Assembly: GCF_036507355.1 (NCBI RefSeq)
Contig: NZ_AP027877.1
Length of the DNA: 64,000 nt
Strand: one strand, 5' to 3'
Source: Escherichia coli
GTDB taxonomy: Bacteria; Pseudomonadota; Gammaproteobacteria; Enterobacterales; Enterobacteriaceae
The position numbers and the translations under genes are program-made. Positions 748-47,926 of this stretch are shown piece after piece. The notes beneath the pieces were generated by a model. The model was not told where the DNA came from. It searched no databases and saw nothing but the letters and a program-made list of their open reading frames with translations. Numbering within the stretch: the first letter of the stretch is position 1; the number at the start of each line of letters is the position of its first letter.

Positions 748-758
748 GGGGTAACACC

Positions 759-11724: not shown

Positions 11725-11775
11725 ACCGCCCCGGGAATCCTGGAGACTAAACTTCCTGAGAAAGAGGTAAACAGG

Positions 11776-12989: not shown

Positions 12990-13153
12990 GTTCACAGATA
13001 AAACACTCTCCAGGAAACCCGGGGCGGTTCACACTATTATTTCTCCGGTTAGCCTACAACAACGTTTTTATCAGAAGCTCAACCAGCAGATAATAGAAAT
13101 GAAAAACCCATTGCAGTGAAATTATTTTTGACAACATACAGCAGGAGTAAAAA

Positions 13154-15444: not shown

Positions 15445-15480
15445 CACTCGAATAAAAATTACAGCAAGGATAAAACCACA

Positions 15481-18003
15481 ATGCTACAGATAATTGGTGC
15501 GTTAATTTTACTGGTAATCGGTTTTGTTATTATAAAAGCGTTGTTTAAGGCATCTCTCAATATTCTAGGTGTGATATTAGGATTGGGTGCATTGATTGTT
15601 GCAGGCCCACCTTTATTGGCGGGCTATATTGTAGAGCGCGTAACCTATGCGCTTCACTCACGTTGGCTGCTGGGTGTACCTCTTGCCATAGCAGGAATGG
15701 TGATTAGCTTTATGTGGGGACTTGATGGTAAACATATTGCCTACGAAGCCTATTCATTTGATTCAATGAAGTTTATTTTAACCGCTGCATTTGCCAGTGG
15801 CCTGCTTGCAGTACCTGTACAAACCAAGGCTATTCTACAAAACGGGCTTATACCAGCCGATATCAATGCCAAACTTAAAGAGTATTATTGCTGTTTTTAT
15901 ACGTCTTACTTTTTGATGGCCTGCTCTGCGGCTACACCGTTTATAGCCTGGCAATATAATATCTCATCTTCACTGATGTGGTGGACAGGATTGCTATACT
16001 GGATAGCAGCCTTACTGACACAGTTCTATGCGGCAAACCAAATTCAGGAACTCAAGAAGTTAACTAATGCCATCAATACAGGGTTAAATGAGCAAAAAGC
16101 GATCAATAACCAACTTTGGCTGACGGAACTAAAAGAAGGAAGTAACCTCTCAGCAGAATTCGTAGAGACTATCTATCTTAAGTTGGTCTCACAGCATATT
16201 TTTCAGGGCGATACTCGAGAGCAGGATCTGGCTGGTGAAAACTGGCTTTTAAATGATGCCTGGTATGAAAGAAAGATGGCTGAATTTAATGAGCAGTTAA
16301 ACAGTAAAATTGTACACTCATCAGATGAGCTAAGAAGCCTTTTTGGTAATAGGCTGAATTTACCCTCTGCTGCGAATGATGATCTCCTGAACCGTTATCT
16401 TGATGGTGGGAACTATTATTCTTTTTCGGATGGTCGAAAATTTGTCTCGTTTCACTATGTCGACGAGCTTTGTACCTGCACTTCATGCGGTTTGAGCGAG
16501 ATTAAAAACGCAAAACACCAGGACGGTTGTGGGAGCCAGGAATGGTATTGCTCTGATATTTGCCGGGAAACGGAAAAACTCTGCATTGAAATTCACAAGC
16601 GACCACAGGCTGAATTTATTTCCAGTGCAGCAACAAACGGTCTGATTCTCATGACGCTCCCGGAGGCCTGGAATACTAACGAAAAAATGTTTGCAGTGGG
16701 AGGACAAGGACATGGTTTTGCAGCCGAACGGGGAAATCATCTTACTGACAAAATCCAACTAAAAGATGCACATATTCTCGGTGATGATAATGCGAAAAAT
16801 GGTGCAGACAGGCTGGTTAACGGTTCAGAGATTCAGACCAAATACTGTGCAACCGCTGCACGTAGCGTCGGTGCTGGTTTTGACGGACAAAACGGTAATT
16901 ATCGCTATTATGACAGTAACGGAACCCCAATGCAGTTAGAGGTTCCGAAAGACCAGTATTCGAAAGCGCTTGAAACGATGGAGAACAAAATTCGCGATGG
17001 CAAAGTCCCCGGCGTTACCGATCCTGCAGAAGCCACAAAACTTGTACGTCAGGGACACCTGACTTATAGCCAGGCACAAAACATTACTAAGTTTGGCACG
17101 TTCGAATCTATCACTTACGACATTGCGGAAGGATCTATCATCAGCCTCGCAGCTGGAGGTATCAGCTTCGGTCTGACAGCTTCTATTTTCTACCTCAATA
17201 CCGGCGATCGTAAGGCTGCGTTGCAAACGGCAGCAATACAGGCAGGTAAAACATTTACCCGCACACTGACAGTTTATGTGACGGTACAGCAATTACACCG
17301 TATCAGTGCCGTTCAGGGGTTACTTAAAAATATTGATTTTGCCGCTGCCAGCCCGACAGTTCGTAATGCGCTTCAACAGGGAGTCGGAGCTAACAATCTC
17401 AACTCCCTTAACAAGATGATGCGTGGCACACTGGTTACCTCTTTCGCACTGGTCGCCGTGACCACTGGTCCGGATATGATCAAAATGGTGCGAGGTCGTA
17501 TTTCTGGGGCACAGTTTATAAAAAATCTGGCAGTTACTTCATCTGGTGTGGCTGGGGGGGCAATTGGTTCTATTGCTGGCGGAATGATGCTTAGTCCATT
17601 AGGTCCTTTCGGTGCTTTAGCAGGACGCGCAGCTGGTGGCTTGTTAGGCGGTATGATTGCCACAGCGATTTCCAAAAAAATAGCGGGTGCACTGGTTGAA
17701 GACGACCGAGTAAAAGTGCTGGCTCTCATCCAGGAACAGGTTACATGGCTTGCAACAAGTTTCATGCTTACAGCACACGAACTTGAAAACCTGAACGCGA
17801 ATCTGGCAACAGTAATTGACCAAAAAACCCTGGAGGTTATCTTCGCCGCAAAAGAGCAAGACCGAGCAACGGCCAATATGCTGATTAAACCACTTGTAGT
17901 AAGTGTGGTTAAGCAACGACCGGTCCTGAGCTATGAACAATCGCAAATCTGCGAAATGGTCGATCAGCTTGATACATCGGTTTCATTATCTGCTGTTGCA
18001 TAA
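15481..18003 (+). CDS. Hypothetical large membrane protein (840 aa): N-terminal multi-TM domain, Cys-rich zinc-ribbon-like segment, C-terminal glycine-zipper region
   Basis: About six N-terminal hydrophobic helices; Cys cluster CTCTSCGLSEIKNAKHQDGCGSQEWYCSDICRETEKLC; C-terminal Gly-rich segment SSGVAGGAIGSIAGGMMLSPLGPFGALAGRAAGGLLGG. Confidence 0.5.
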   Translation: MLQIIGALILLVIGFVIIKALFKASLNILGVILGLGALIVAGPPLLAGYIVERVTYALHSRWLLGVPLAIAGMVISFMWGLDGKHIAYEAYSFDSMKFILTAAFASGLLAVPVQTKAILQNGLIPADINAKLKEYYCCFYTSYFLMACSAATPFIAWQYNISSSLMWWTGLLYWIAALLTQFYAANQIQELKKLTNAINTGLNEQKAINNQLWLTELKEGSNLSAEFVETIYLKLVSQHIFQGDTREQDLAGENWLLNDAWYERKMAEFNEQLNSKIVHSSDELRSLFGNRLNLPSAANDDLLNRYLDGGNYYSFSDGRKFVSFHYVDELCTCTSCGLSEIKNAKHQDGCGSQEWYCSDICRETEKLCIEIHKRPQAEFISSAATNGLILMTLPEAWNTNEKMFAVGGQGHGFAAERGNHLTDKIQLKDAHILGDDNAKNGADRLVNGSEIQTKYCATAARSVGAGFDGQNGNYRYYDSNGTPMQLEVPKDQYSKALETMENKIRDGKVPGVTDPAEATKLVRQGHLTYSQAQNITKFGTFESITYDIAEGSIISLAAGGISFGLTASIFYLNTGDRKAALQTAAIQAGKTFTRTLTVYVTVQQLHRISAVQGLLKNIDFAAASPTVRNALQQGVGANNLNSLNKMMRGTLVTSFALVAVTTGPDMIKMVRGRISGAQFIKNLAVTSSGVAGGAIGSIAGGMMLSPLGPFGALAGRAAGGLLGGMIATAISKKIAGALVEDDRVKVLALIQEQVTWLATSFMLTAHELENLNANLATVIDQKTLEVIFAAKEQDRATANMLIKPLVVSVVKQRPVLSYEQSQICEMVDQLDTSVSLSAVA

Positions 18004-18166
18004 TGAAAGGTATAAATTCATTACCATCGTGATATGGTGCTTCAGACGAAGCAAACTTAAATACCATTAACCCCATGATACTATTGTAAAATCCAAAAAA
18101 AATAATAGTAATCATCATAATGAACTGGTTCGAACAGACTGCGGAAGAGTATGGAGAATTAACAAA

Positions 18167-18186
18167 TAAGGGGGCATTTGCCCCCT
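18167..18186. terminator. Candidate bidirectional rho-independent terminator between the 840-aa gene and arsC
   Basis: Perfect 8-bp GC-rich stem AAGGGGGC/GCCCCCTT with a 4-nt loop, flanked by T-rich sequence on both strands. Confidence 0.5.
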
Positions 18187-18192
18187 TCATCA

Positions 18193-18618
18193 TTATTTCA
18201 GTCGTTTACCTGCATCATCAACGACTTTCTCGCCGTCTTCCTTAGCAAATGCGCCTTTTTGCGCATCCGGAAGAATATCCAGTACCACTTCGGAAGGACG
18301 GCACAGACGCGTTCCCAATGGTGTCGCCACAATCGGGCGATTAATCAGGATCGGATACTGAAGCATAAAATCGACTAACTGATCGTCAGTAAACTTATCT
18401 TCCGCAAGCCCCAGTTCTTCATAAGGTTCAACATTTTTACGCAATAGTGCCCGTACCGTTATCCCCATATCTGCGATGAGTTTGAGCACCTCATCGCGTG
18501 AAGGTGGATTTTCAAGGTAAAGAATAACGTTCGGTTCAGTACCGCTGTTGCGGATCATCTCCAGCGTATTACGCGACGTGCCGCAGGCTGGGTTGTGATA
18601 AATAGTGATGTTGCTCAT
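18193..18618 (-). CDS. arsC: Arsenate reductase ArsC (141 aa)
   Basis: MSNITIYHNPACGTSRNTLEMIR... with the catalytic Cys in the HNPACGTSR motif; recognised as enterobacterial ArsC. Confidence 0.85.
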   Translation of the reverse strand: MSNITIYHNPACGTSRNTLEMIRNSGTEPNVILYLENPPSRDEVLKLIADMGITVRALLRKNVEPYEELGLAEDKFTDDQLVDFMLQYPILINRPIVATPLGTRLCRPSEVVLDILPDAQKGAFAKEDGEKVVDDAGKRLK

Positions 18619-18630
18619 ATCAATATCTCA

Positions 18631-18840
18631 TTACAAAGTGAAAGAGAGACGTAGCGCCAGCGCGGCCAGCGTTACAAACAGCACAGGCAGAGTCATGATG
18701 ATCCCGGTGCGGAAATAGTATCCCCAGGTGATGGTCATGCTCTTCTGTGAAAAGACATGCAGCCAGAGTAGCGTTGCCAGGCTACCAATAGGTGTAATTT
18801 TCGGCCCCAGATCGCAGCCAATCACGTTGGCATAAATCAT
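18631..18840 (-). pseudogene. arsB: arsB 3' fragment (C-terminal about 69 codons of the arsenite efflux pump)
   Basis: Encodes only the hydrophobic C-terminal end of ArsB immediately upstream of arsC. No arsB 5' region or arsR is present, so the ars operon is truncated here. Confidence 0.7.
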
Positions 18841-19072
18841 CGCCTCTTTGATAACGCATCATACTGCCAGCGGAATAACTCTCTTCGTCAATACGGCTCT
18901 CGCTGTACGCTTACCCATCTAGAGAGGTTTCAGGTGATTATCGATGTCAGAAGACTGAATGATTCAGTCGTTTACTTTGAGATAGATCAGAGGTTTTTCA
19001 CTACCTGTGTTCATCACATGGCTACGAATAGTAGAATCCAAGCATAAATTAACGCTTAGAAAAGTTGAGCTC

Positions 19073-22000
19073 ATGAGATTCCACCCTGAAGGGCCTTCCA
19101 TACCCGATATCCTCTTAGAACGCTGTGATACAGGTCGAGTTGTATTTCTCTGTGGCGCTGGGGTTTCATTACCTTCAGGGATGCCAAGCTTTGTAGAGCT
19201 TACCCAGCATGTAATTGAATACTTTGACCCACCACACGATTCAGAAATCATGGCAGCATTTCGCCCATGGCTTCACGACCAATCTTCAGCTAATGTCCCT
19301 CTCGACCAAATTTTCAACCTCCTACATCTGGAATATGGCAAGGATGAGGTGAATGCTTTGGTATCAAAGCGTCTGGGGACTGCAAGAACTGATATAGAGA
19401 TTGGACGTGAGCATGCCCTGATTAAAAGAATTTCCTCAAATCAGAGTGGTGTCCCACAGATTGTCACAACGAACTTTGACCGACTGTTCGAGGATAACCA
19501 AGCGCAAGATAATCTAACTCGATATGTGCCGCCAGCTTTCCCAAATCTGAATTTCGGTTCGACAATTGAGGGAATAACATATCTTCACGGCCGCCTGGTC
19601 GACGAAAATGCTGTAAACCATCCTTATGTGCTGAGCAGTGCAGACTTTGGAAGAGCATATCTTTCAGAAGGATGGGCGACCAATTTTATTAAGCTTCTTC
19701 TGGAACGATACATCGTTGTTTTGGTCGGTTATCAGGCAGAAGACCCACCAGTTAAATACCTCCTTCAGGGTCTCAATCATGATGGCCAGTATGATCGTTC
19801 CAGACTTTATGCATTTGATCGCGGCCTTGCCGAGGATATCGAAGCCAAATGGCGTGACAGAGGAGTTACAGCCATAGCCTATTCCGATCATCCAGCTCTT
19901 TGGAAGACTTTGGAAGCATGGGCTGAGCGAGTAGATGATCCACGTCGATGGCGAGCTTCTATTATCGCTAAAAGCCAGCAAGATCCGAAAGTTCTAGCAC
20001 CGTATGAACGTGGTCAACTTGCCCATATACTTCGCACTACACAAGGTGCGAAATTGTTCTCTGAAGCTGTTCCTCTTCCCCATCCAGAGTGGCTTTGTGT
20101 GATGGATGCAAATATTCGGTCAGCCAAACAGAAGAAAAGATACTACGAACTTGATGACAATGATGCAGAGACCTTCGATCCACAAGAAGCTTATGGGCTT
20201 GATGACGATCTGCAAGATATCGCTGATGATGAACGTAAACGTGGAGTGAGTAACGATAATCTCCTTGAATAGCGCGACGAAGATGATAACCCGTCAGATT
20301 ACCATCGCTTGGCTGGATGTTTGGAGACAATGCCGAAACGATTGAGCCATCTCATGGTCTGGTTCTGCAAATCTCTTGATAGCCCCGTGATGGCTTGGTG
20401 GGCTATCCGAAAAATCAGTATTCATCCTCTACTACTACAAAATATTGAACGCAATATTGAGCATTCAACATCAATCCACAAACGCGCTCGTCAACTGTGG
20501 GGCTTAATTCTTGAACATCATAAAGATCCCCGCAATCGTCGTTATGACGTCGATTGGTACGACTTAAAAGCTCGAATTACAAAACAAGGCTGGACAGCTG
20601 GTGTCTTACGAGAATTTCGTAGGGTAATGACACCCCGATTGGAAAAGAAGTTGCCGTATGGATTGGGTGAAGTCAGACCGCCAAGCGGCTCCTGGGAGGA
20701 AATTCAGTTCAGCGAATTTGGCCAATTTGAAGTTGTGTTCACCGAAAGACATGATGACGATTTAGACGTACCTGACAATGTATTACTACAAGTATTTAAT
20801 GCCTTAGAAGCGCAAATAATAATTGCCTCCGGAATGTTAGAGGATATTGATACGCACTACTTTCCAAGCCCAAGTTGTTATCCAGAACGTGCGGTTGAAG
20901 GAGAAGAACATTTCGCGAAAGGTGCGGAGGTATTAACTTGGTTTGTCCAACTTTTAGACCGAGTTGTTATGAAGTGGCCAGAATTGGCTAAGGCATAAGT
21001 AACAACTTGGCCAGTTAAGGAGCCATTTTTCTTCCGAAAGCTTAGACTTTATGCATTCAGTAAAAAAGGCGTCTTTGAGGCTGACCGTGTTGCCGAAGAG
21101 CTTTTGTCTTTGGATCAAAGTGGATTTTGGGACACAAATATTACCCGCGAACTTCTTTTTCTGCTCACTGATCGTTGGGAAGAATTCTCGCAAGAAAATC
21201 AGAATCGAATTATAGAGCATATATTAACCGGCCCGAACCATTTACTTTATTTGTCTGAGGAAGACATTCCAAAAGAAAGAGAGATATTAGCAGCTAGATA
21301 CGCTCGTTATCTCGAACTAAACGGCTGTAAAGTAACCACTATTCATCGTGACCAACTAACTGCGATGATTAAAAGAATTCCTGACTGGAATGATGGCTGG
21401 GCTACATCTGTTGTCATCAATTGGGGTTCACGGACAGGTTGGGTTCGTACAGACGAAAAGCCAGATATAATCTTAGATCTTCCAGCAAACGAAATAATCC
21501 CAAAAGTAAAAGAGATACTTAAACGAGAGGATGATAGCTTTACTAGTAGGCAACCCTTTGTCGGATTGATAAAAGAAAATCCGCGTAAAGCTTTGTCTGC
21601 ACTCGCTATTGCAGGGAGAGGCGGTGATTACCCTAAGGAATTTTGGTCGCCAATGATAAGTGAGTTACCTATAGATCTTAAACCAAGGGTGAGACGAGTA
21701 TTCCTGAACCGAATTGTGCGATTGCCAGTTACAGCTTTGGTCGAGTTACGACATACATTAAGTAACTGGCTTGAACAAAATTTAGCTGCGACTCTTGAAT
21801 TTGATGAGGATCTCGGGTGGGCAGTTTACGATCATGTCATAGCAGGCATACTGAGTGGTGGCGCCAGTGCAATACGGAGTAGTTTCGGAGAAGTTATCCG
21901 GAATGGAGAAGTTGTAATACAGTCTCGCCGCACGTTCAGTCATGCAATCAATGGTCCTGTCGGTAAATGTACTCAAGCGCTTTTTCAAGCAATGCCAAGT

Positions 22001-22882
22001 GAAGAGAAAAAAGCTGGTTCGCTTATTCCTTACTCTATTAAGTCTCGTATTGAACATCTTTTTACTGCACCAGGAGAAGGAGCGGACCACGCTATAGCTA
22101 TAACGTCTCGCAATCTAAATTGGCTAATGTTTGTTGATCCTGCATGGGTAAAGGAATGGCTTATACCCCTTTTGGATTTAAAACATCCTGCAGCAGAACC
22201 AGCATGGAATGGTTATCTTCAGTGCAATGCTATGCCTTCAATTGCAGTAGCTGAACTTATTAAACCAGCTTTTCTTAACCTTATCCCTTGGATCGAATCT
22301 CTTTCTTGGGAAAAAGATTATTCAGTTCGAGCTTCGCAATGGCTTGGCTTAATGAGAATGTTTCACCCTGATGAGCCCTCCAGTCCTTCCAGGAATGAAA
22401 TGCGCTCCATATTACGAGCATTATCTGACGAGGCTCGAAATCGTTTTATTTCCTGGTTAGGATTGGTCGGGCAGAAAAACGAGAGTGGCTGGGTTAAGTA
22501 TGTGATCCCATTAATCAGAGAGGACTGGCCCAAAGAACGCCAATATAGAACCACGAGCTCTGTAAAAGCATGGATTGGTTTACTTGACGATACTGGCGAT
22601 AAGTTTCCGGAGGTTTACGATTCAGTAAAAACATACTTAGTACCAATCGAGACAATTGATCATTTGTTCTACAGATTCACTCGGGAGCTCGGTGGTAAAG
22701 GAGCAATTGCGGCTATTTTTCCAGAAACCACGCTTGATTTAATGGACAAAATAACACCACTGATATTCACGCGTACATCAGGAGAGCTGCAGAAGATTCT
22801 TGAGCTAATTGAAGATACAGATACAAGTCTGATCAAGGATTCTCGGTACTTACGGCTTATTGCACTGGTTGAGAAAAATTAG
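19073..22882 (+). pseudogene. Large SIR2-domain protein gene (about 1,270 codons) interrupted by two in-frame stop codons
   Basis: N-terminal SIR2-like motifs (VVFLCGAGVSLPSGMPSF; IVTTNFDRLFE). Track ORFs 19007-20272, 20309-20998 and 21104-22882 all lie in the same frame, separated only by TAG at 20270-20272 and TAA at 20996-20998. Confidence 0.65.
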
Positions 22883-23040
22883 CATTTATGGTTTTTTACC
22901 GTTGTTGATTACTCAGCAACACTTTTCGACATGCCGTAGCGCTTATCGCCTGTTCTTGACTAAGATGAGAAGCAGGCGTTAAAGTTTGGTTAAAGGAGAA
23001 CCTCTAACCATTCCTTCTGGAAGAAATAATCTTTGGAGTA

Positions 23041-23769
23041 TTATTGAAATTGCTCAAATATACCATGCAACCCAATAAATTTTATTTTTAGTGCAGGATC
23101 ATGCCTTAGAACAGTCTCAAGTGAGTTCCGCTCATAAATTATTGATTGTGCTTGTATTGAGCCGTTCCATGAAGGCAAAAGCAGTAAAGCAGATGTTTCC
23201 AAATCAATACCCCACCAATCGTTAACATAGCAATTTAAAAAATCAACAAGAGCCTTAATCGCAATAAAAGCATCTTTTTCGGTATATGTTTCAGGATCGA
23301 GGGATATACCTGATATATTACTTTTAGCTTGCTCGGAATTAATATTAGACTGGTGTTGATAAGCAATTTTTCCTTCACCCGGTTTAGTTTCTATTGTATC
23401 AGTGAAAATTTTAATCTTAGGATGCACCAATGCATTTCGTTGTGCTATTAATTCTTTTATTATTTGTGTTTGAGTGGTTCCACGAGGTAAAGACATGTCT
23501 TTATGCCATTGAAGAGTATAGTCAAATTTATCAAGTGAAGAGAACCTGTCAATTTGATCTTTTAACTTTTGCGTTATTTCTATAGAAGATAAAAATGAGT
23601 TAGCTGCAGCCTCAATAGCGTAGTTAATTGAAAGTACACTTGATTTGGCAAGTGTTTTTTTGATGTGTGATTTTTTTGTTGCAGCTGATAATTCATAAAG
23701 AGTTATTGCATCAGAAAAAAGCTCAAAAAAGCTGTTCTTGGTTATTTCAACTTTTCTTTTCACACGCAA
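23041..23769 (-). CDS. Hypothetical protein (242 aa), third gene of the uncharacterised operon
   Basis: ORF in a low-GC region 84 bp downstream of the 504-aa gene on the same strand; no recognisable motifs. Confidence 0.45.
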   Translation of the reverse strand: MRVKRKVEITKNSFFELFSDAITLYELSAATKKSHIKKTLAKSSVLSINYAIEAAANSFLSSIEITQKLKDQIDRFSSLDKFDYTLQWHKDMSLPRGTTQTQIIKELIAQRNALVHPKIKIFTDTIETKPGEGKIAYQHQSNINSEQAKSNISGISLDPETYTEKDAFIAIKALVDFLNCYVNDWWGIDLETSALLLLPSWNGSIQAQSIIYERNSLETVLRHDPALKIKFIGLHGIFEQFQ

Positions 23770-23852
23770 CCCTCTGCATAAAAAATAAAATCATATAGAC
23801 AGAATACAATTTCCTATAATCTTTACATTCTACTAATTGTGGATATAAATGG

Positions 23853-25367
23853 CTATCGAGAATAAGAACTGGGTTTAGGAAAACCACCTCTGACGACGAC
23901 AACAACAATTGCAACTTGAGATTGACCTGTTGGATGAGTGAATACTTCAATATCATCCTCTATTACTCCCACCGGCGCTGATTTTGACGTTGATTCCAGA
24001 ACAACCAAAATACCGATACGCTTACCTAATCCAATGGCATAAGCTGCTGTTTGATCGAAATATTTTTGAAAATCCTTGGGAAAAAGAACCTTATTATTTT
24101 CAACTTTTAGTTCTATCGGAATGTCTTCAAATGTGAGATCCGTTATCCCGCCAGCAGCCTCTGGATGGCCTTGTAATTTCTCGCCAATCTCATTCCTACT
24201 TCTAAGCATTTCGGCTATTTTACGCTGAAATTTTTGCTCTGATGTGCCAGCAATAAATAAACTAGCTTTAAGAGCTTGTGCTGCAACATTTCCTAAGCCG
24301 CCAAGTATAACCATTGTATTAGCAATGTCATCTGAGTGTAATCCAGGGAAAGCTCGTAATATGTTACGAATTTTTATAAGATGCCTATCGACGTTTGAAA
24401 ATCCAGTTAATGGAGCTTGAGCGGAATCACTCCCTTCAAGTAGTAAGCGCCTATGTCCTACGATAGCAATATTTTGGCAATTACTTAAATTGTCAAACTC
24501 GGCAGCATATAGGAATTCGTAAGGTCTCGAGCCAAATGAATTTGCCACTTCCAAGACGACACGACCGATCCCCTTCAGTGTGAAGGGGCCTTCCCCCTCT
24601 GGTTTCTCAAATCTAAAATCAGGCAACCAGTCTCGCTCACGAGCATCAATTGTCACTGGCTTTAATGAGAGGAAATTTGCACTTTTTGGCCAATTTGAAA
24701 CCCTGACCTCTATGTTAAGGTCATAAGCCGTACCCGGCTTAAGATAATTCCATTGCTGAGCTGGTTCCCCATCAATATCAAACTTTAGAAATGCAACTGT
24801 CGATTCTTGTGTTTTATTCTCTTTTGTCTCTTTACTAGATATTCCTTGCCTAATCTCCTCAATATTTTTATCGCGAAGATTTGCGAATAAGAGTAGTGGC
24901 AATGACCAGCTTGTTAACTGGTCTTGTATTTGTTTTAATGAATCTAATTTACTGATTGAACGGACTTGCTCTATAAATTCATTAAATTGTTTGTTCTCCG
25001 AGAGACTCGTCGTCATGTCGATCTCTGATGCTTTTAATTGTGCTGAATTTAAAAACCTTTGAGCATCAGTCTCAGCATTACGTATAGCATGTTTCCACTC
25101 AGCTAGAGTTACAAATATAGTCATTGCTATATAATATGCACGATATTGATCTTCAACATATCCCTGACCGAGCTCATCGAGCGTTTCATTGAGCTTTTGA
25201 CACGCTTCTTTAAGTTTCACCAAGTCATTCGGAATGGACTTGAGTGCACCATCCAACGCTGCTGCAATCTCAACCCTCGGAGAAAAAGCTTGGCGGAAAA
25301 TCTCGAAATTTGGCTCGTTCTTCATATTCTTTCTCCAACTCAGCCGTAAGACCATTCCATTTTTCAA
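23853..25367 (-). CDS. Hypothetical protein (about 490-504 aa) with possible C-terminal PD-(D/E)xK nuclease-like motif
   Basis: C-terminal segment GGITDLTFEDIPIELKVENNK fits a D-x8-E-x-K pattern. The start is uncertain: the first ATG overlaps the upstream gene by about 98 bp. Confidence 0.45.
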   Translation of the reverse strand: MKNGMVLRLSWRKNMKNEPNFEIFRQAFSPRVEIAAALDGALKSIPNDLVKLKEACQKLNETLDELGQGYVEDQYRAYYIAMTIFVTLAEWKHAIRNAETDAQRFLNSAQLKASEIDMTTSLSENKQFNEFIEQVRSISKLDSLKQIQDQLTSWSLPLLLFANLRDKNIEEIRQGISSKETKENKTQESTVAFLKFDIDGEPAQQWNYLKPGTAYDLNIEVRVSNWPKSANFLSLKPVTIDARERDWLPDFRFEKPEGEGPFTLKGIGRVVLEVANSFGSRPYEFLYAAEFDNLSNCQNIAIVGHRRLLLEGSDSAQAPLTGFSNVDRHLIKIRNILRAFPGLHSDDIANTMVILGGLGNVAAQALKASLFIAGTSEQKFQRKIAEMLRSRNEIGEKLQGHPEAAGGITDLTFEDIPIELKVENNKVLFPKDFQKYFDQTAAYAIGLGKRIGILVVLESTSKSAPVGVIEDDIEVFTHPTGQSQVAIVVVVVRGGFPKPSSYSR

Positions 25368-27843
25368 TTAAGTCATTATAGGGTTCGCAAACACTTATGG
25401 CATGTTCAATGCTAGCTGCTTCTGTAACTAAAGCAGCCTTAAGTTTCCATTGTGTATTTCTTTCATCATTTGGAATTTCTTCCAGTAGTTCCTTTAAACA
25501 AACATTTGCAGTTACGTTATCACCACACTTGCTTAACGCAGCCACGTACACTAATGCTTCAATAAATTGTTGAGGTTTAAATGGTTTCAGAGCATTGAAT
25601 GCTTTTTGGAGATCGTCTTTACAATTTCGAAGCTCATTATGTGGCGCTCTTAATATCACTGAGATGCAGTCATCAATAGAAATACTGCGAGTATACTCAT
25701 CCTGAATTGCTTTGAGTGCGACTTTGACAAAACCGGGAATATCATCAAAATGAAAACGCAATCGATTGATAGCATCATAAAGTGCACTTCCTTCTAAAAT
25801 TAATAATATATTAGAAAGAAGCAATCCAATTTTCCCCTTTCTCTCTTCATCTGATAAGCAAAGAGAAGAAAAAACGTCAATGCATTCTACAATGAAATTA
25901 TCTTTTTTATCTTGTTGAATATAATAGCAAATTAGATTCCATAGCCGGGATCTCACAAGTCCCCGTTTCTCCTCAGGAAAAGATCTACGGCTCAAAGCGC
26001 GAACAGCATACTGATGCACCATAACATATTGATCTAATAGCAAGACTGAATATGCTTCGAAGAATAAATCTGGGAAATTCTTCACTAAATCATAGGGAAC
26101 ATTTTCCCACGCTTGTACGGCACGTGCTCGAATCAATGTACTCTCATCCATAAGAGCACGATACCAATCGGAGAGCACTAGTGTTAGGCTGTCAATACCA
26201 GTTAATAACTTAGAAACATGGGCAATCATGTTCCCACGCATTTGAGTTTGTTCTTCTGGTAAGCTTCTATAGAGATGAAGAAAATCATCGATTCCTTCAC
26301 TCCCTCTAGATTTAGCTCCAATCGCAGCCCATTCAATCAATGCACCCTGTAAGCCATCAATAGCATTACGCTTATTACTTTTATCTAAATGATCTAGAAA
26401 ACTCTCATTTATTTCTATGATTTTTTCTTTATTCAACGCCTCAAATTTCTCGCTTAGCGTTGCAGCCGCTCCGATCAAATCGTCAAAATTATCAACTGCA
26501 AGCTCAGCAAATTCGTCCCAAGAGTGTCTAAAGAATTGTCCTGCATCATCCATGCTATCCTCTGGATTTTCCACAGCAGCCCAGAGCAAACGCCTAAAAG
26601 CTATTTTTTGTGTCTTTCCTGTTTTACTTTTTTTTCTATAGTTATTTCGCAGTACAGATCTGTAAGCTCTATTGGCCTCATGTCTCCCAATATCATCTTT
26701 GTCAGCAAGATAGGATTGAATAACTTTATCGCTTTCATCGGGAAATCTATCTAAGTATTTCGTAGCAGCCTCCCGAAGAAAGAAAAGAATGCTGCTATCT
26801 CTCCGCTCCTCCGGGAGTAGAGTCCGTCGACGCATCAGCTTAGCAAATATACTTCTAATATGTCTTAGAAGCAGCTCATCATCATCCGATGCAATAATTA
26901 TCTCAATAGCAAATTGAAATTTTCCCCGGTGAGTATCTTTTATGTATTCATCAACAACATCACAGATATCAGCTTGTCTTTTTTTAAAAAGTGACTGAAT
27001 GGGGCCTTTATTAAGTACTTTTCGCTCAAATGTGCCAATCATCATTCCAGGAGGAGATTCAACAGCCATTCTAACAAAGTGGTAAAGGACTTTTAAGAAA
27101 TCATCTTCAGATAGATTCTCTGCTTCCAAGAGGATTGCTTCTATAGCTGGTGGACAATATTCGAAGTTGTTTATTAAATATACTGAAATTGCCAGTTTTT
27201 CCGCTTGTGATAATTCAGTTCTTATTAAAGCTTTTGCTGCTGGCATTGAATATGGTAATTTCTCATGTAACACTGCAGGCAACAAGTGTTCAATTATTTT
27301 ACTTGTAAATGTCTCAGGTGCCAGATTAGCAAGTTGTTCCAAACGGGGATCGTTGTTCTCTATATCCTCTTGATCGAGTTCATCAAGCAAATCAAGCACA
27401 AACGTTTCTTCTAGAGTAAGTGAAAGACGTAATACTGCTCGTTCTTGTTGTCTATTGAGCTGCTTCTGCTTTCTCTGCCTTTCTTCTTCTTTGCGAGCCA
27501 AATTTCGTTCTTCGGCAGATTTTTCTCTTGGGCCTACAAACTCTAAAATATTGGGAAATCCCACCGGAACCCGTTGATTACAATGTTTACAGTTCTGTTT
27601 ATAGAAGCTGTAAACCGAGTCTTCCAGCAGCCAGCTAAGCATTGAACTTTGCTTAACAAATTTGCATTGAACTCCCATGTGACCAATGGGTAACCCTGTT
27701 TCAGCCTCAATCATGCCTCTCCCCTCTGATCGAATGAATTCAGAGTGAGAACACCAGTTACTAAGTAGGTGTACAGCACGGAGATTTCGTTGACCAGCTT
27801 CGATTGCCTCTTCAAATCTTTTTTTATCTTCAAAATCATCCAT
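25270..27843 (-). CDS. Hypothetical large protein (857 aa) with N-terminal Cys/His cluster; first gene of the operon
   Basis: N-terminal WCSHSEF...GHMGVQCKF...CKHCNQ could be a zinc-binding module; the rest is predicted helical with charged linkers. Preceded by an AT-rich 400-bp region. Confidence 0.5.
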   Translation of the reverse strand: MDDFEDKKRFEEAIEAGQRNLRAVHLLSNWCSHSEFIRSEGRGMIEAETGLPIGHMGVQCKFVKQSSMLSWLLEDSVYSFYKQNCKHCNQRVPVGFPNILEFVGPREKSAEERNLARKEEERQRKQKQLNRQQERAVLRLSLTLEETFVLDLLDELDQEDIENNDPRLEQLANLAPETFTSKIIEHLLPAVLHEKLPYSMPAAKALIRTELSQAEKLAISVYLINNFEYCPPAIEAILLEAENLSEDDFLKVLYHFVRMAVESPPGMMIGTFERKVLNKGPIQSLFKKRQADICDVVDEYIKDTHRGKFQFAIEIIIASDDDELLLRHIRSIFAKLMRRRTLLPEERRDSSILFFLREAATKYLDRFPDESDKVIQSYLADKDDIGRHEANRAYRSVLRNNYRKKSKTGKTQKIAFRRLLWAAVENPEDSMDDAGQFFRHSWDEFAELAVDNFDDLIGAAATLSEKFEALNKEKIIEINESFLDHLDKSNKRNAIDGLQGALIEWAAIGAKSRGSEGIDDFLHLYRSLPEEQTQMRGNMIAHVSKLLTGIDSLTLVLSDWYRALMDESTLIRARAVQAWENVPYDLVKNFPDLFFEAYSVLLLDQYVMVHQYAVRALSRRSFPEEKRGLVRSRLWNLICYYIQQDKKDNFIVECIDVFSSLCLSDEERKGKIGLLLSNILLILEGSALYDAINRLRFHFDDIPGFVKVALKAIQDEYTRSISIDDCISVILRAPHNELRNCKDDLQKAFNALKPFKPQQFIEALVYVAALSKCGDNVTANVCLKELLEEIPNDERNTQWKLKAALVTEAASIEHAISVCEPYNDLIEKWNGLTAELEKEYEERAKFRDFPPSFFSEG

Positions 27844-28246
27844 TTAGATAACACCCTTATAAGGAACATGTACTCATCTAAAATGCTGTTACCGGATTAT
27901 TATACCTAAAACAATGAATGCTGTGTATTATGAAATGTGATATAAGTCAATTAGTTACATATAAAAACCAACTCACATCCAAAAGGATAGTATTTCGAGG
28001 TTTGTAGCATCATTAAATGTGAACTTATTTATCGCCCCCTCAAGTTAACTAATAAATAAGTTATAATTTACATATACTTCTGGAATTTAGAAACCTTATA
28101 TCTAATAGTTGAGTAAGTTAATAATCAACTTGAGTGTGATTCATAAAAAAAATAATTATTATTTTCAGCCCCTCCATTATGGAGGAGCAATAATAGTATA
28201 GTTTTCCTGTATTCCTAACGATCCAGTTAGGCTTAGAGAAATCTAA

Positions 28247-29443
28247 TTATGAAGCACTCCTGAGAGCAACCCTTCCAACTTTATCAATATAATCCGCATA
28301 CCACTGCATCATCTCTCTCCTGCCTTCCAAATACAGCGCATGGTTGTACGTCCCGCGAATCGCATTCTTATCGACATGCGCAAGCTGGGTTTCAATCCAT
28401 GCGGTATTGAACCCTTCCTCATGCAAAATCGTACTCATCGTGTGGCGGAAACCATGCCCCGTTACCTTCCCCGTGTACCCAATCCGCTTAAACACCTGAT
28501 TAATACTCGCTTCGCTCATTGTTTTGCGGGGATCATTCCTCCCAGGAAACACCAGAGGATATTGCCCAGACATCACTTTGAGCTGCTGTACGATCTCCAG
28601 CGCTTGGGTAGAGAGGGGCACCAGGTGAGGCCGTTTCATCTTCATGCGCTCTGCAGGTATTTCCCACACCGCTTTTTCAAGATCAAACTCACTCCAGAAA
28701 GCACCTCGAAGCTCACCGGTGCGAACCCCCGTAAGGATCAGCAAACGTGCGGCAAGAACAACCAGCGGGCTGCCTGTATAGCCAGAAAGAGCTTTAAAGA
28801 AATCTGGTAACTCCTCAACGGTAAGGAAGGGATAATGCTTCGATTCATGCCCTGACATCGCGCTGGTTAGATCCGCAGCCGGATTGTATTCCGCACGACC
28901 GGTAACTATGGCGTAGCGAAAGACTTCGCTGCAGCGCTGGCGAACTTTCTTGGCCTTCTCTGTCGCACCACGGCTTTCCATTCGACGCAGTACATTCAAC
29001 AGAACAAGAGGCTTAATTTCATTGACTGGCTGCTGACCGATATAGGGAAAAATATCTTTATTTAAAGCTTCGATAATGTCCGATGCATACCCTTCTGACC
29101 ATCTGCTCACCTTCGTACCGTGCCACTCAAGCGCCACAGACTGGAACGTATTATTGAGCTGCACATCACGAACCAGCTTTTCTTCTTTCTTGGCAAACGA
29201 TGGATCGATACCCTCGGCCAGCTTTTTCTTGGCTTCATCGCGTAGTGCCCTCGCTTGAGCAAGGGACACTGCCGGATAAACGCCAAAAGCCATACGCTTC
29301 TCTTTTCCATTGAAGCGATATTTCATTCGCCAGTATCGAGAACCAGAGGGAACGACTTCAAGATACAAACCAGCACCATCTGCCAGCTTATAGGCTTTCT
29401 CTCTGGGTTTAGCTGCATCTACCTGTCGCGCATTTAGCTTCAT
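28247..29443 (-). CDS. int: P4-type tyrosine integrase (about 398 aa)
   Basis: N-terminal MKLNARQVDAAKP...LYLEVVPSGSRYWRMKYRF typical of P4-family integrases; C-terminal catalytic region with HGFRHT and a downstream Tyr; lies beside a tRNA fragment. Confidence 0.8.
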   Translation of the reverse strand: MKLNARQVDAAKPREKAYKLADGAGLYLEVVPSGSRYWRMKYRFNGKEKRMAFGVYPAVSLAQARALRDEAKKKLAEGIDPSFAKKEEKLVRDVQLNNTFQSVALEWHGTKVSRWSEGYASDIIEALNKDIFPYIGQQPVNEIKPLVLLNVLRRMESRGATEKAKKVRQRCSEVFRYAIVTGRAEYNPAADLTSAMSGHESKHYPFLTVEELPDFFKALSGYTGSPLVVLAARLLILTGVRTGELRGAFWSEFDLEKAVWEIPAERMKMKRPHLVPLSTQALEIVQQLKVMSGQYPLVFPGRNDPRKTMSEASINQVFKRIGYTGKVTGHGFRHTMSTILHEEGFNTAWIETQLAHVDKNAIRGTYNHALYLEGRREMMQWYADYIDKVGRVALRSAS

Positions 29444-29606
29444 TGGGGGCATCTCCCTGGACCGAACACAGAATGCCCCCACTTATGCCCCCAACTGTAA
29501 CTTGATTCCGGTTGAGTCCAGTTGATAACAGGAGATAAAATACGGGCTAGAAACCGCAGTATACGGGCTTTTAGTTGATTTCGGTAGACTTGGGAAGAGT
29601 TTGAAA

Positions 29607-29655
29607 TGGTGCCGATAATAGGAGTCGAACCTACGACCTTCGCATTACGAATGCG
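29607..29655 (-). other. 3' fragment (49 bp) of a tRNA-Thr(CGU) gene; attachment-site remnant
   Basis: Reverse complement reads ...CGCATTCGTAATGCGAAGGTCGTAGGTTCGACTCCTATTATCGGCACCA: anticodon stem-loop with CGT, T-arm, acceptor 3' strand and CCA. The 5' half of the tRNA is absent, so this is not a functional gene. Confidence 0.7.
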
Positions 29656-31145
29656 AGCCAGTTCGAAAATGAGTATAACTATGAGTACATAAAAAACAAA
29701 TAATTAATAAAAATATATTAATCAATATGATATCACATAAGTTACGGTTCAACGTCTAATTAATTTATTGTCTCATGAGGTTTCGCTAAATCTCATGAAG
29801 AGCGCAAAAGTATATAAAATCCACGCAATTGCGTGGATTTTTCATTTCACCGAGTCCTAATCATTCTTGTAACATCCTACACTTTTGTGCTTATTGCCTA
29901 CAGTGAACCACGAGAATAATTAAAGACATAAGTGTTCAGATGACGGATATCTCATTAGCAGTGATATAACGTCAGTTTTTGTTCCACTACACATCAGCCC
30001 CCTTCACAGCTGATCAATATTGATCACGCTCCAATATACTGGCGAGAAAAGGACTTACCTGAAGGGTAATATCCCGCAGATAAAGTCCCCGAATAACGTG
30101 ATTACGTGCGATCCTGGCAAGATGAAAATGATAACCAATAGCACGATAATAACGATATGCCAGAACATCCATTGATCAAAAATGAATATCGATGTTTTTT
30201 GCTTTTTCTTATTAGTAATGCAAAAATGGCGCATATTGTTTTTGTTATGCAGATACATCAAGCGAAAATCCCATAACTAATTAGGATTATTACCAAAAAA
30301 TATTCACCAAATTATTTAACCGCTGTTTGTTGTAATGTTTTTGTCATATTCATAGTAACGAATTGGAATAAGTAACGACAACTTAGGGAATAACTCGATC
30401 TAAACTTACCTTTGTAATGGGGATGTTAAATATATATTAATTCCTGTGTTTCTGATTTTACCCGGTAATAGAGAATTATTCTCATAGCAGCTCATCATGA
30501 TTGCACCATACAAATATCATGATGATAAGAGGATATTATTCATTGACTTAAACAAAATGACAAAATTCATAGACCCATAGCCTGGGTACTATATAGGAGT
30601 GGTATGGGCATCAAACAACACAATGGGAATACCAAAGCCGATCGTCTCGCTGAATTAAAAATCCGTTCGCCCTCAATTCAACTGATAAAATTTGGCGCTA
30701 TTGGTTTGAATGCAATTATCTTTTCCCCCCTGCTGATAGCTGCTGATACAGGAAGTCAATATGGCACCAATATTACTATTAATGATGGTGACAGAATTAC
30801 AGGAGATACCGCCGATCCATCAGGAAACCTCTATGGTGTAATGACCCCAGCAGGAAACACGCCTGGCAATATCAACCTGGGTAATGATGTCACCGTCAAT
30901 GTCAACGACGCCTCTGGATATGCAAAAGGAATCATTATTCAGGGCAAAAACAGCTCCCTGACAGCTAACCGACTCACAGTAGATGTTGTTGGTCAAACCT
31001 CTGCCATCGGCATTAATTTAATTGGTGACTATACCCATGCTGACTTAGGCACAGGCAGCACCATTAAGAGTAACGATGACGGCATCATTATTGGGCATAG
31101 CTCAACACTAACAGCCACTCAATTAACTGAATCGCCACGGATAAT

Positions 31146-41451: not shown

Positions 41452-43149
41452 ATGAAATCCCCCGCACCTTCTCGCCCGCAAAAAATGGCGTTAATTCCAG
41501 CCTGCATCTTTTTGTGTTTCGCTGCGCTATCGGTGCAGGCAGAAGAAACACCGGTAACGCCACAGCCGCCTGATATTTTATTAGGGCCGCTGTTTAATGA
41601 TGTGCAAAACGCCAAGCTTTTTCCGGACCAAAAAACCTTTGCCGATGCCGTGCCAAACAGCGATCCGCTGATGATCCTTGCTGATTATCGGATGCAGCAA
41701 AACCAGAGCGGATTTGATCTGCGCCATTTCGTTAACGTCAATTTCACCCTGCCGAAAGAGGGAGAGAAATATGTTCCGCCAGAGGGACAGTCACTGCGCG
41801 AACATATTGACGGACTTTGGCCGGTATTAACGCGTTCTACCGAAAACACCGAAAAATGGGATTCTCTGTTACCGCTGCCGGAACCTTATGTCGTGCCAGG
41901 CGGACGTTTTCGCGAGGTATATTACTGGGACAGTTACTTCACCATGTTAGGACTTACCGAAAGCGGTCACTGGGATAAAGTCGCGGATATGGTGGCCAAT
42001 TTTGCTCATGAAATAGACACTTACGGTCATATTCCCAACGGCAACCGCAGTTACTATTTAAGCCGCTCGCAGCCGCCCTTCTTTGCCCTGATGGTAGAGT
42101 TACTGGCGCAGCATGAAGGCGATGCCGCATTGAAGCAATACCTGCCGCAAATGCAAAAAGAATATGCTTACTGGATGGACGGTGTTGAAAACCTGCAAGC
42201 CGGACAACAGGAAAAACGCGTTGTAAAACTTCAGGATGGTACCCTTCTCAACCGCTACTGGGACGATCGCGATACGCCACGACCAGAGTCATGGGTGGAA
42301 GATATTGCCACCGCTAAAAGCAATCCGAATCGACCTGCCACTGAAATTTACCGCGACCTGCGCTCTGCTGCTGCGTCTGGCTGGGATTTCAGCTCGCGCT
42401 GGATGGACAATCCGCAGCAACTAAATACCTTACGCACCACCAGCATCGTACCGGTCGATCTGAACAGCCTGATGTTTAAAATGGAAAAAATCCTCGCCCG
42501 CGCCAGCAAAGCTGCCGGAGATAACGCGATGGCAAACCAGTACGAAACGCTGGCAAATGCCCGTCAAAAAGGGATCGAAAAATACCTGTGGAACGATCAA
42601 CAAGGCTGGTATGCCGATTACGACCTGAAAAGTCATAAAGTGCGCAATCAGTTAACCGCGGCCGCCCTGTTCCCGCTGTACGTCAATGCGGCAGCGAAAG
42701 ATCGCGCCAACAAAATGGCGACGGCGACGAAAACACATCTGCTGCAACCCGGCGGCCTGAACACCACGTCGGTGAAAAGTGGGCAACAATGGGATGCGCC
42801 AAATGGCTGGGCACCGTTACAGTGGGTCGCGACAGCAGGATTACAAAACTACGGGCAAAAAGAGGTGGCGATGGACATTAGCTGGCACTTCCTGACCAAT
42901 GTTCAGCACACCTATGACCGGGAGAAAAAGCTGGTGGAAAAATATGATGTCAGCACCACCGGAACGGGGGGCGGCGGTGGCGAATATCCATTACAGGATG
43001 GCTTTGGCTGGACCAATGGCGTGACGCTGAAAATGCTGGATTTGATCTGCCCGAAAGAGCAACCGTGTGACAATGTTCCGGCGACGCGTCCACTCAGTGA
43101 ATCAACAACACAGCCGGTAAAACAAAAAGAGGCGGAACCTACGCCTTAA
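41452..43149 (+). CDS. treA: Periplasmic trehalase TreA
   Basis: Signal peptide plus glycoside hydrolase family 37 sequence (…[15 protein letters not shown]…); AAGGAGAA RBS upstream. Confidence 0.9.
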
Positions 43150-43178
43150 CTTTGCTGTATATCGAGGCTGTATATCGA

Positions 43179-43219
43179 GCAATGCCATTATGTGCATAAA
43201 ATTGGCATTGCTCTTTTTT
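43179..43219 (+). terminator. Candidate rho-independent terminator downstream of treA
   Basis: Inverted repeat GCAATGCCA ... TGGCATTGC followed by CTCTTTTTT. Confidence 0.5.
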
Positions 43220-43491
43220 CGCCACGAAATGCCCCCCATTCTACGGTCTATGCCTTTATTTTCTTTTATCAGAGAAGATTTTAATTTTATTTTATCAATT
43301 TGTTAATCATTACACCTCTATTTATATTTTTCGCCACTCCGCCATTCTCCCTGACAATTTTCTTGTGGAACAAAGTGTTATTTAAGCAACAAGCAAATCA
43401 TTCTGTCTCTTTAGACAAATTTTGACATCAAACATGATTTTTTCGATATATATGTAAATATATAGCGGTTTTAATTATCAGGATATAACTT

Positions 43492-44514
43492 ATGTCACTA
43501 ACCAGACGGAGGTTTACACAGATTCTTGCGTCAACATTGTTCCTGCATCATCTGCCGTCCTTTGCACAATCAGTCAATTTCTGGGCCTCACTGACGCTTC
43601 CCGAAGCCCAAAACATTACACGCATCGTCAGCGCAGGCGCGCCCGCCGATTTGCTATTGCTGGCTGTCGCGCCAGAAAAAATGGTCGGTTTTTCCTCTTT
43701 TGATTTTGCCCGTCAGGCATTAATTCCATTGCCAGAGCACATTCGCCAGTTACCCAGGCTGGGACGACTCGCCGGGCGCGCCAGCACACTCTCGCTGGAA
43801 GGGCTTATGGCGTTACATCCCGATTTGGTCGTTGATTGCGGCAATACGGATGAAACCTGGATCTCCCAGGAACGGCAGGTTAGCGAACAGACACAAATAC
43901 CCTGGTTATTGCTTAACGGGAAACTGGAGCAATCAGCAGAACAGTTAACAACGCTTGGCAAAACGTTAGGCGAAGAGCATCGCGCCGCAGAACAAGCCAA
44001 TCTCGCCAGCCGCTTCGTTGGTGAAGCTCAGGCATTCGCCACCTCACCCGCCGCTAACCTCCGCTTTTATGCTGCGCGCGGTCCTCGAGGGCTGGAAACG
44101 GGCTTACAGGGTTCGTTGCATACCGAGGCGGCGGAATTATTAGGTTTGCACAACGTCGCGCAAATCGCCGATCGCCACGGCCTGACACAGGTTTCCATGG
44201 AAAATCTCCTGCGCTGGCAGCCGGATATTATTCTGGTTCAGGAGGCCGTTACTGCAGATTTTATTCGTCGTGATCCTCTCTGGCAGGGCGTGAAAGCCGT
44301 TGCGGAACAACGCATCTTATTTTTAAGTGGCTTGCCCTTTGGCTGGCTGGATGCCCCGCCGGGAATCAACCGTCTTCTGGGATTACGCAGACTTCACGCC
44401 TGGCTGGATCCCGCCATCAATCGCCAGTTTAAAAGTGACATGCAGCATTACGCCCAACTGTTCTGGCATTGTTCACTCAGTGACGCCGACTATCAAAAAT
44501 TGGTGGCGAGCTAA
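43492..44514 (+). CDS. Periplasmic substrate-binding protein of an iron-siderophore/cobalamin-type ABC importer (340 aa)
   Basis: Twin-arginine-like signal (MSLTRRRFTQIL...); first gene of a coupled binding-protein/permease/ATPase set. Confidence 0.6.
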   Translation: MSLTRRRFTQILASTLFLHHLPSFAQSVNFWASLTLPEAQNITRIVSAGAPADLLLLAVAPEKMVGFSSFDFARQALIPLPEHIRQLPRLGRLAGRASTLSLEGLMALHPDLVVDCGNTDETWISQERQVSEQTQIPWLLLNGKLEQSAEQLTTLGKTLGEEHRAAEQANLASRFVGEAQAFATSPAANLRFYAARGPRGLETGLQGSLHTEAAELLGLHNVAQIADRHGLTQVSMENLLRWQPDIILVQEAVTADFIRRDPLWQGVKAVAEQRILFLSGLPFGWLDAPPGINRLLGLRRLHAWLDPAINRQFKSDMQHYAQLFWHCSLSDADYQKLVAS

Positions 44515-45494
44515 TGAGAATCGTAAACGGATGTATTTTGCTGCTGGCAGCTATCAGTATCACTTTTGCCGCCGTAAGTGGGGCTTATCATCTCGATATG
44601 CAGCAACTGCTGGCGCTAATTCTTCGTCAAGAAAATGTTCCTGTGCAGGAACAAATTGTCTTCTGGCAAATCCGCGTGCCGCGTATTCTTGCTGCGCTGT
44701 TACTGGGCGCGGCGCTGGCAGAAGCCGGAACCACCTATCAGGGAATGTTGCGTAATCCCTTAGTTTCACCGGATATTTTAGGCGTCTCCGCCGGTGCCGG
44801 ACTTGGTGCCTGCACGGCAATTCTGTGGGGATTATCCATTGTTTACATCCAGCTGTACGCATTTTGCGGCGGGCTGATGGTGGTCGCGGGCGTCTGGTTG
44901 ATTACGCGTCGGGTGACCCGCCACGATCCGATCTTAACCCTGGTGCTGGTAGGCATTACGTTAGGAACGTTGTGCGGTGCGGGGATATCGCTAATTAAAA
45001 CGCTGGCCGATCCTTACACCCAGTTACCGTCAATTACCTTCTGGTTGCTGGGGGGACTGTCCACCGTGACCTTACGCGATCTCTGCTATGCTGCACCGAT
45101 CATTCTCATAGGCTCCTTGCCCCTGTTTTTTCTCCGCTGGCGCATGAATTTACTCACGCTTTCCGACGACGAAGCCCGTTCGCTGGGACTGAACGTGACG
45201 CGTCTGCGCTTTGGATTGATTGTCTGCGCCACACTAATCACCGCCAGTACGGTAGCAATAGCGGGCATAATTGGTTGGGTCGTCCTGGTCGTTCCGCACA
45301 TTGCCCGCTTGTTGACCGGTCATAACCATCAGCAGCTGTTGCCCATGGCAATGTGTACTGGCGCGATTCTGCTCCTGCTTACCGATACGCTGGCACGCAG
45401 CATTGGAACAACAGAAATCCCACTTGGCATTCTGACCGCTTTTGTTGGCGCACCGTTTTTCCTGTTTTTGTTGTTACGCGGAGGTCGCCAGTGA
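44514..45494 (+). CDS. ABC importer permease, FecCD/BtuC family (326 aa)
   Basis: Polytopic membrane protein with about nine hydrophobic helices; start overlaps the upstream stop. Confidence 0.65.
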   Translation: MRIVNGCILLLAAISITFAAVSGAYHLDMQQLLALILRQENVPVQEQIVFWQIRVPRILAALLLGAALAEAGTTYQGMLRNPLVSPDILGVSAGAGLGACTAILWGLSIVYIQLYAFCGGLMVVAGVWLITRRVTRHDPILTLVLVGITLGTLCGAGISLIKTLADPYTQLPSITFWLLGGLSTVTLRDLCYAAPIILIGSLPLFFLRWRMNLLTLSDDEARSLGLNVTRLRFGLIVCATLITASTVAIAGIIGWVVLVVPHIARLLTGHNHQQLLPMAMCTGAILLLLTDTLARSIGTTEIPLGILTAFVGAPFFLFLLLRGGRQ

Positions 45495-46249: not shown

Positions 46250-46258
46250 GGAAAAATC

Positions 46259-47922: not shown

Positions 47923-47926
47923 TTCT

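Follow-up and report, generated by a model that had tools for sequence, protein, structure and literature searches.

Williams is said to have distinguished, in 2002, classes of tRNA sublocation for integrase islands. Composite islands that form via attachment (att)-like sites on resident elements are exemplified by GI21 within CGI48 of Shewanella putrefaciens (PMC8978831), and the accretion of integrative and conjugative elements (ICE) and integrative and mobilizable elements (IME) has been reviewed (PMC5704250). Here, we analysed a stretch of 64,000 nucleotides of Escherichia coli DNA (contig NZ_AP027877.1; hereafter the window), in which int_B, a P4-type tyrosine integrase gene, directly adjoins the 3′ 49 nt of the tRNA-Thr(CGU) gene thrW, to the left of the autotransporter gene ycgV. 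The ychF-ycgV interval, to which this junction belongs, is defence-island hotspot #22 in an E. coli survey (PMC10121019). The 49-nt piece is an attachment-site block joining two nested integrative islands and not a broken tRNA gene. An outer island, here called E0, occupies ychF and carries the block near its right end, and islands of the thrW type are inserted precisely there. It is very probable that the islands at ychF-ycgV are nested in the sense that the tRNA-Thr block of E0 acted as a surrogate attB, at which a thrW-type defence island docked.

The block lies on the minus strand at 29607-29655, and the reverse complement of this segment is identical to positions 28-76 of E. coli thrW with 0 mismatches. 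It is present in a single copy in the window, and shuffled sequences give an expectation of 0 matches. The original prediction, made from the sequence letters, held that the integrase abuts only the 3′ 49 bp of a tRNA-Thr(CGU) and that the similarity is lost exactly at the anticodon stem. Both statements are borne out, in that ARAGORN found 0 tRNA genes in the whole window and the similarity to intact thrW of Z226-5 and K-12 reaches exactly to position 28, within the 5′ strand of the anticodon stem, and no further. At the block, the Rfam tRNA model aligns weakly over its full length, with 24.2 bits under a gathering score of 29, and the complete tRNA that the prediction had named as a possible refutation is found by neither program. 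Matches to the Rfam Leu_leader model were merely the ychF terminator hairpin and were disregarded. The canonical layout of a tRNA island is absent on two counts. Positions 1-27 are missing, so that no intact tRNA gene stands beside the integrase, and no direct repeat of the tRNA 3′ part is found at the far end, there being one block copy in the window and one in ET826, a genome 99.98% identical to the window across the island.

The comparison with genomes in which the site is empty (A30, K-12 and most others) defines the right-hand limit of the inserted DNA. There, ychF ends ...CTG TTC AAC GTC TAA and is directly continued by the sequence found from window 29748 onwards. By this comparison and by alignment of attL, attR and attB, TTCAACGTCTAA at 29748-29759 (plus strand), which comprises the original last ychF codons and stop, is the attR of E0. 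It is repeated at ychF, as attL, in relatives, and only attR lies inside the window. The 92 bp between the block and attR (29656-29747, plus strand) constitute the right-end arm of E0 and are confined to genomes whose ychF site is occupied. Two direct ATGAGTAYA repeats lie in this arm (29669-29677 and 29681-29689), and three further copies lie immediately upstream of int_A, a second P4-type integrase gene at the opposite end of E0 in ET826. Repeats shared in this way by both ends have the look of the arm-type sites that an integrase has on each arm of its element. From 29760 to 30603 the window is colinear with the empty-site genomes, K-12 included, and represents the native ychF-ycgV intergenic region with the ychF terminator hairpin at about 29817-29840. 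The inserted DNA is thus 29656-29747 and everything left of 29656, the remaining ~844 bp being ordinary intergenic region. Over 29656-30603 (948 bp) the G+C content is about 38-42%, and no open reading frame (ORF) of at least 60 aa is found except one of 68 aa on the minus strand. The prediction had described about 950 bp of AT-rich non-coding DNA followed by ycgV, which is right as to composition and gene and is amended here in that only the first 92 bp is island DNA. That ycgV is not a neighbour of thrW also stands.

These data bear directly on whether the block could be what is left of a second, resident tRNA-Thr gene between ychF and ycgV that lost its 5′ part. The full-length Rfam alignment, weak as it is, and the first bases past the break, which by eye are loosely D-arm-like, could be read that way. 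The empty-site genomes carry neither a tRNA nor a tRNA remnant between ychF and ycgV, however, and the block is seen only together with the island arm. ARAGORN finds nothing at the block, and its break at position 28 is the same as that of the att repeat of the K-12 island CP4-6. A decayed resident tRNA is already contradicted by these observations, and we give it almost no credence.

The left end of E0 lies outside the window and was deduced from ET826, which serves as its reference. In ET826, ychF is followed by TTCAACGTCTAA, by a diverged copy of the ychF tail with its terminator, and then by int_A; ychF and int_A are situated ~14 kb to the left of window position 1. The diverged tail of E0 lies beside ychF at 10789-10890 of ET826 locus L005, and its hairpin is itself identical to the native one. 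Because E0 supplies its own copy of the tail and terminator, ychF keeps a stop codon and a terminator after integration. This layout is the usual signature of an element that integrates in the 3′ end of a gene and replaces the displaced part. The resident island thereby has its own integrase and, in ET826, target-site repeats at both ends. Such an integrase is found beside ychF in 628 of 5426 complete E. coli genomes.

To the left of the break, the window matches an island with another address. Positions 13029-29655 are 99.96% identical to an island beside intact thrW, next to proA, in Z226-5, and the int_B island is found alone at thrW, its primary site, in that genome and in others. The identity to Z226-5 ends exactly at tRNA position 28, and the identity to E0 of the AR_0128 type, an E0 form in which no integrase adjoins the block, begins at 29614. 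The two identities consequently overlap inside the block, as expected if recombination took place there. The integrase gene int_B (28247-29443, minus strand; ORF 28247-29482, annotated start 29443) is intact and encodes 398 aa. Its product has the domains Arm-DNA-bind_3 (PF13356), Phage_int_M (PF22022) and Phage_integrase (PF00589) above the Pfam cut-offs, is 100% identical to the integrase adjoining intact thrW in Z226-5 and shares 38% identity with that of int_A. The translation contains the R...HxxR...Y catalytic residues in VRTGELRG, HGFRHT and RGTYNHA.

Between int_B and the block lies the integrase-proximal arm of the inner island (29444-29606), in which a motif scan detected candidate arm-type sites of int_B. 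These are RTGCCCCC at 29452 (inverted), 29473 and 29485, and ATACGGGCT at 29539 and 29560. The Z226-5 copy of this island, at thrW, likewise has a pair of RTGCCCCC repeats at its far end (locus L006, 20082 and 20094), so that this repeat marks both ends of the thrW island and differs from the repeats of E0. Two other origins of the 92-bp arm were considered. That it is the far arm of the inner island itself, the junction then being attP, was ruled out by the far end in Z226-5, which is unrelated and has other repeats, and no resemblance was found to the IntF-proximal arm of CP4-6 in K-12. As a BLAST query the 92-bp arm alone gave no match, probably on account of its shortness and AT-richness; matches were obtained with longer queries.

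The block belongs to E0 also where no nested element is present. Block, 92-bp arm and ychF repeat occur together in 29 E. coli genomes at ≥80% coverage, and ~500 further records, mostly ST131-like, hold a diverged form with 84% identity, a figure derived from identity bands. Most of the 29 close copies are of the AR_0128 type. To its left, the block in these copies has the remnant of a cbtA-type toxin and a flank that shares homology with the thrW-ykfI flank of CP4-6 in K-12. An exact-pattern scan across genera, with one genome per species, showed this layout to be present also in Edwardsiella piscicida, Pantoea piersonii and a soil metagenome-assembled genome (MAG), with the block again 92 bp inside the right end of E0. 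Resident islands that carry the site and lack a nested element are represented by the AR_0128-type, ST131-type, Edwardsiella and MAG copies.

This distribution is at odds with the arrangement that the original prediction proposed, in which islands accreted in tandem at thrW and an insertion sequence (IS) or some other rearrangement later moved the thrW-side junction beside ycgV. Tandem islands do occur at thrW, the int_B island of Z226-5 being followed by a CP4-6-like island, and the window is rich in IS elements. At 29655/29656, however, there is no IS, and the block is continued on the right by the arm conserved in the ychF island and then by the repeat of the ychF stop codon. The combination of block and arm exists without an integrase in AR_0128-type E. 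coli and as diverged copies in three other taxa. A rearranged thrW tandem is contradicted by the empty-site and attL/attR comparison and must be regarded as highly improbable. What survives of the prediction is island accretion as such, the accreted island being nested in a ychF island and not placed in tandem at thrW. The site is ychF-ycgV occupied by a ychF-inserted island, not a relocated thrW locus. The prediction had also allowed that the junction could be the standard arrangement in close relatives; it is rare, being found with int_B in 3 of 5426 complete E. coli genomes.

Integrases beside the block are not confined to int_B. At least three other thrW-type integrases or remnants adjoin the same block elsewhere, all in the same orientation. 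A 646-aa integrase (int646) stands beside the block in AH21I008 and OZ547099, and in ESBLEC_HM50 a match to int646 lies ~13 kb from it. Integrase remnants adjoin the block in H5 and H6 and in RM14723, as does the N-terminus of a P4-type integrase in P. piersonii. The int646 integrase has no detectable similarity to int_B and is found beside thrW in more than 15 genomes, UTI89 among them. AH21I008 is an AR_0128-type E0 with an insertion of 10,591 bp, and the 42-nt block is present at both junctions with no IS at either. The far junction now holds the displaced, degenerate 3′ end of the E0 block together with its flank, and the end next to the integrase is a perfect ...CCA. At the real thrW, an element of the int646 type leaves a 42-nt repeat, positions 35-76.

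The far junction in AH21I008 also holds an almost full-length tRNA-Thr-like sequence (locus L014, 33397-33470; positions 1-65) with a compensatory change in the T-stem, GGAGG/CCTCT versus GTAGG/CCTAT, and an upstream flank that is not of E. coli type. This composition hints that a variant of the int646 element may once have taken up a whole thrW from another host.

Several observations weigh against the nested-island reading and, in particular, against the view that int_B itself entered through the block as a surrogate attB. Since ychF and int_A lie outside the window, the outer island had to be reconstructed from near-identical relatives. The distal junction of the int_B island is gone in the window, in ET826 and in ET881, and its mode of entry can therefore not be read directly. 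A second copy of the block, the predicted distal hybrid junction and the cbtA flank of E0 were sought in these three sequences, and none is present. At the real thrW the int_B repeat is only ~16-17 nt long (tRNA positions 60-76), and precisely these positions are degenerate in AR_0128-type E0, where they match the int_B repeat poorly. Because of this degenerate end, entry of int_B would have called for an E0 allele whose 3′ end was intact, produced for instance by earlier docking.

The same observations lend themselves to a different explanation, namely that the resident ychF island acquired a copy of the int_B module from the thrW locus of a donor by RecA-dependent recombination, one crossover falling in the 42-49-nt block and the other in further shared DNA such as an IS3 copy. 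On its left the inner island ends at an IS3-family element, no distal att copy is present, the shared block is just long enough for a rare crossover, and the int_B repeat region at positions 60-76 is degenerate in the commonest E0 allele. Homologous exchange does not readily account for at least four different integrase modules at the same point and in the same orientation, one of them unrelated in sequence, nor for AH21I008, in which the element is simply inserted, the block is duplicated and both junctions are free of IS. We consider homologous exchange unlikely, and int_B presumably entered by site-specific recombination. Both junctions of the int646 element in AH21I008 carry the att block, the distal junction of int_B being deleted in the lineage of the window, and thrW-type integrases appear to use the block as a surrogate attB.

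The sequence of events under site-specific docking may be outlined as follows. E0 would integrate via int_A into TTCAACGTCTAA, the last 12 bp of ychF, and bring along a replacement tail and terminator. It carries a copy of the thrW anticodon arm and T-arm, starting at position 28 and lying 92 bp inside attR near the two ATGAGTAYA repeats, and integrases that normally target the real thrW would treat this copy as a surrogate attB. Insertion would place the incoming integrase directly beside the block and rebuild the 3′ end of the block to a perfect ...CCA. An insertion of this kind yields exactly the layout of integrase, 3′ 49 nt of tRNA-Thr and foreign flank. In the lineage of the window, the incoming element would have been the defence island with int_B, Olokun, Dsr1 and PDC-M09 that is otherwise found at thrW, and an IS3-family element later removed its far end. 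With the far att site lost, the inner island is no longer able to excise by itself and would be locked in.

The degree to which the parts of the site are conserved differs considerably. Both the spacing and the ATGAGTAYA repeats are kept in 7 diverged variants, and mean pairwise identity over these copies is 100% for the ychF core, 94% for the anticodon stem-loop part of the block (positions 28-45), 89% for the linker beside the block, 84% for the arm heptads, 76% for the T-arm part, 62% for the AT-rich spacer and 48% for the acceptor 3′ part. The acceptor 3′ part is perfect or nearly so in all copies with an adjoining integrase or remnant. Among the integrase-free copies it is degenerate in three of four (AR_0128, ST131 and the MAG) and intact in Edwardsiella. 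Judged by conservation, E0 seems to maintain the anticodon-arm mimic as a component of its own att arm, and the remainder of the block would degenerate if it were not renewed by docking. The block may descend from an ancestor that targeted thrW and had a CP4-6-like architecture. A by-eye comparison of the ychF core with the anticodon region of thrW, as a source of the block, revealed nothing convincing. Since the anticodon part, linker and heptads are so much better conserved than the spacer and the acceptor 3′ part, one may speculate that the ychF-island family has a selected mimic of the thrW anticodon arm, which would also attract thrW-specific defence islands by offering them a place to dock, across several Enterobacterales genera. 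We put this forward tentatively, as a possible but doubtful extension of the nested-island reading.

E0 variants encode, in addition, a third tyrosine recombinase of ~310 aa (ET826 L005, 18691-19638; ST131 L010, 34234-35163; AH21I008 L014, 18310-19257). Its neighbours in ET826 and AH21I008 are a DUF905 gene and a cbtA remnant, RadC being ~1.7 kb off, and in ST131 it directly adjoins radC. In ST131 O25b:H4 (L011, 23150-23700), the right end of the ychF island has a diverged tRNA block and abuts dhaR. A clean ycgV junction was sought at the island right end in ST131, and none was found as ycgV is deleted in this lineage. Just inside the right end lie a retron Ec67-type gene and an ABC-three-component system.

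The cargo of the inner island (13029-28246), delimited by identity to Z226-5 and by PADLOC and Pfam matches, is defensive. It comprises PDC-M09A/B of the candidate system PDC-M09 (13154-15444), an 840-aa protein (15481-18003), Dsr1/SIR2 in three ORFs (19007-22882), a 242-aa protein (23041-23769) and Olokun OloB (23853-25367) and OloA (25270-27843). The Dsr1-type SIR2 gene is split into ORFs of 421, 229 and 592 aa in the window, is found as two ORFs in ET826 and is a single gene of 1210 aa in Z226-5; in the window it is probably inactivated. An IS3-family element of ~1.31 kb (11717-13028, plus strand), recognized by breaks in colinearity and by the annotation of ET826, cuts off the far part of the inner island. 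To its left, 1-11716 is the interior of the composite ychF-ycgV island, 99.98% colinear with ET826 L005 24931-36650, and it presumably belongs to the outer island. This segment includes an IS1 and a type I restriction-modification system (3070-10507) with hsdR (1044 aa), a DUF4268 protein, hsdS and hsdM, identified through the annotation of ET826, which is identical there. A zorA remnant (10801-11724) adjoins the IS3-family element. ET826 has a complete zorA1-zorB1-zorC-zorD at this point, from which it follows that ~7.2 kb of type I Zorya was lost beside the IS in the window.

To the right of the block, ycgV (30604-35743, plus strand; annotated in ET826) is interrupted at 31125-33616 by ~2.5 kb holding two IS3-family copies (ORF pairs of 270 and 94 aa and of 272 and 100 aa), which are absent from ET826. 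One of them is similar to the sequence of IS911 type into which IS30 is inserted in K-12-like genomes. Two further segments, 43091-49895 and 54672-56599, are absent from ET826 as well. The ORF sizes of the former look like the ST131 treA-ymgE cluster of iron ABC transporter, S-adenosylmethionine (SAM)-methyltransferase, ModD and TonB-receptor genes, and the latter segment has a 478-aa ORF at 55236-56672.

An integrase with a tRNA fragment is easily misread as a degraded tRNA island or an assembly problem during annotation, and here it marks a nested island. Defence islands of the thrW type, with Olokun, Dsr1, Gabija-like and other systems, can turn up at the ychF-ycgV hotspot, and the identity of a hotspot therefore does not fix the integrase families that deliver its cargo. 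In the mapping of islands, att blocks within resident islands should be looked for besides tRNA genes. If E0 truly maintains the mimic, composite defence islands could be assembled there and then moved as a unit by int_A, and if the mimic is selected, one mobile element would have in it an inherent means of gathering others away from a tRNA gene. We did not find described in the literature a tRNA look-alike conserved in an island family that targets a protein gene, or one serving several unrelated thrW-specific integrases, or an occurrence of this kind ~1 Mb from thrW and in several genera. The hotspot survey (PMC10121019) has no 'thrW' in its main text and the supplements covered and no 'tRNA-Thr' in its main text, and to that extent the block and the nesting are apparently undescribed. 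The mention of ychF in the Pipolin paper concerns other phyla and was not relevant.

Compared with hotspot #22 of Hochhauser et al. 2023 (PMC10121019), the locus has the same flanking core genes and likewise a cargo of defence systems. It resembles P4-type integrase islands at tRNA genes in the domain set of int_B and in the position of this gene directly 3′ of the tRNA sequence and co-directional with it, as at thrW in Z226-5, but it differs from them in that tRNA positions 1-27 and the distal direct repeat are missing from the window. CP4-6 of K-12 (feature 262898-297205) uses the same tRNA and the same 49-nt repeat from position 28, and its thrW-ykfI flank is homologous to the flank of the AR_0128-type E0 block. 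It resides at thrW with the intact tRNA at one end, however, whereas the block in the window is at ychF with another arm, and IntF is only ~20% identical to the int_A or int_B integrase. The accretion systems (CGI48/GI21 and ICE/IME) have in common with this locus that an island is captured in or beside another via a resident att-like site and that its primary chromosomal target is a different one. They differ in that the primary target of the captured elements is here a tRNA gene ~1 Mb away, that the surrogate site is a tRNA look-alike kept in a resident island family across genera, and that several unrelated integrases, as far as their sequences tell, appear to act at it. Accretion and composite islands via att-like sites are already known, and the nested island in ychF-ycgV, with its putative surrogate site, would be a variant of them.

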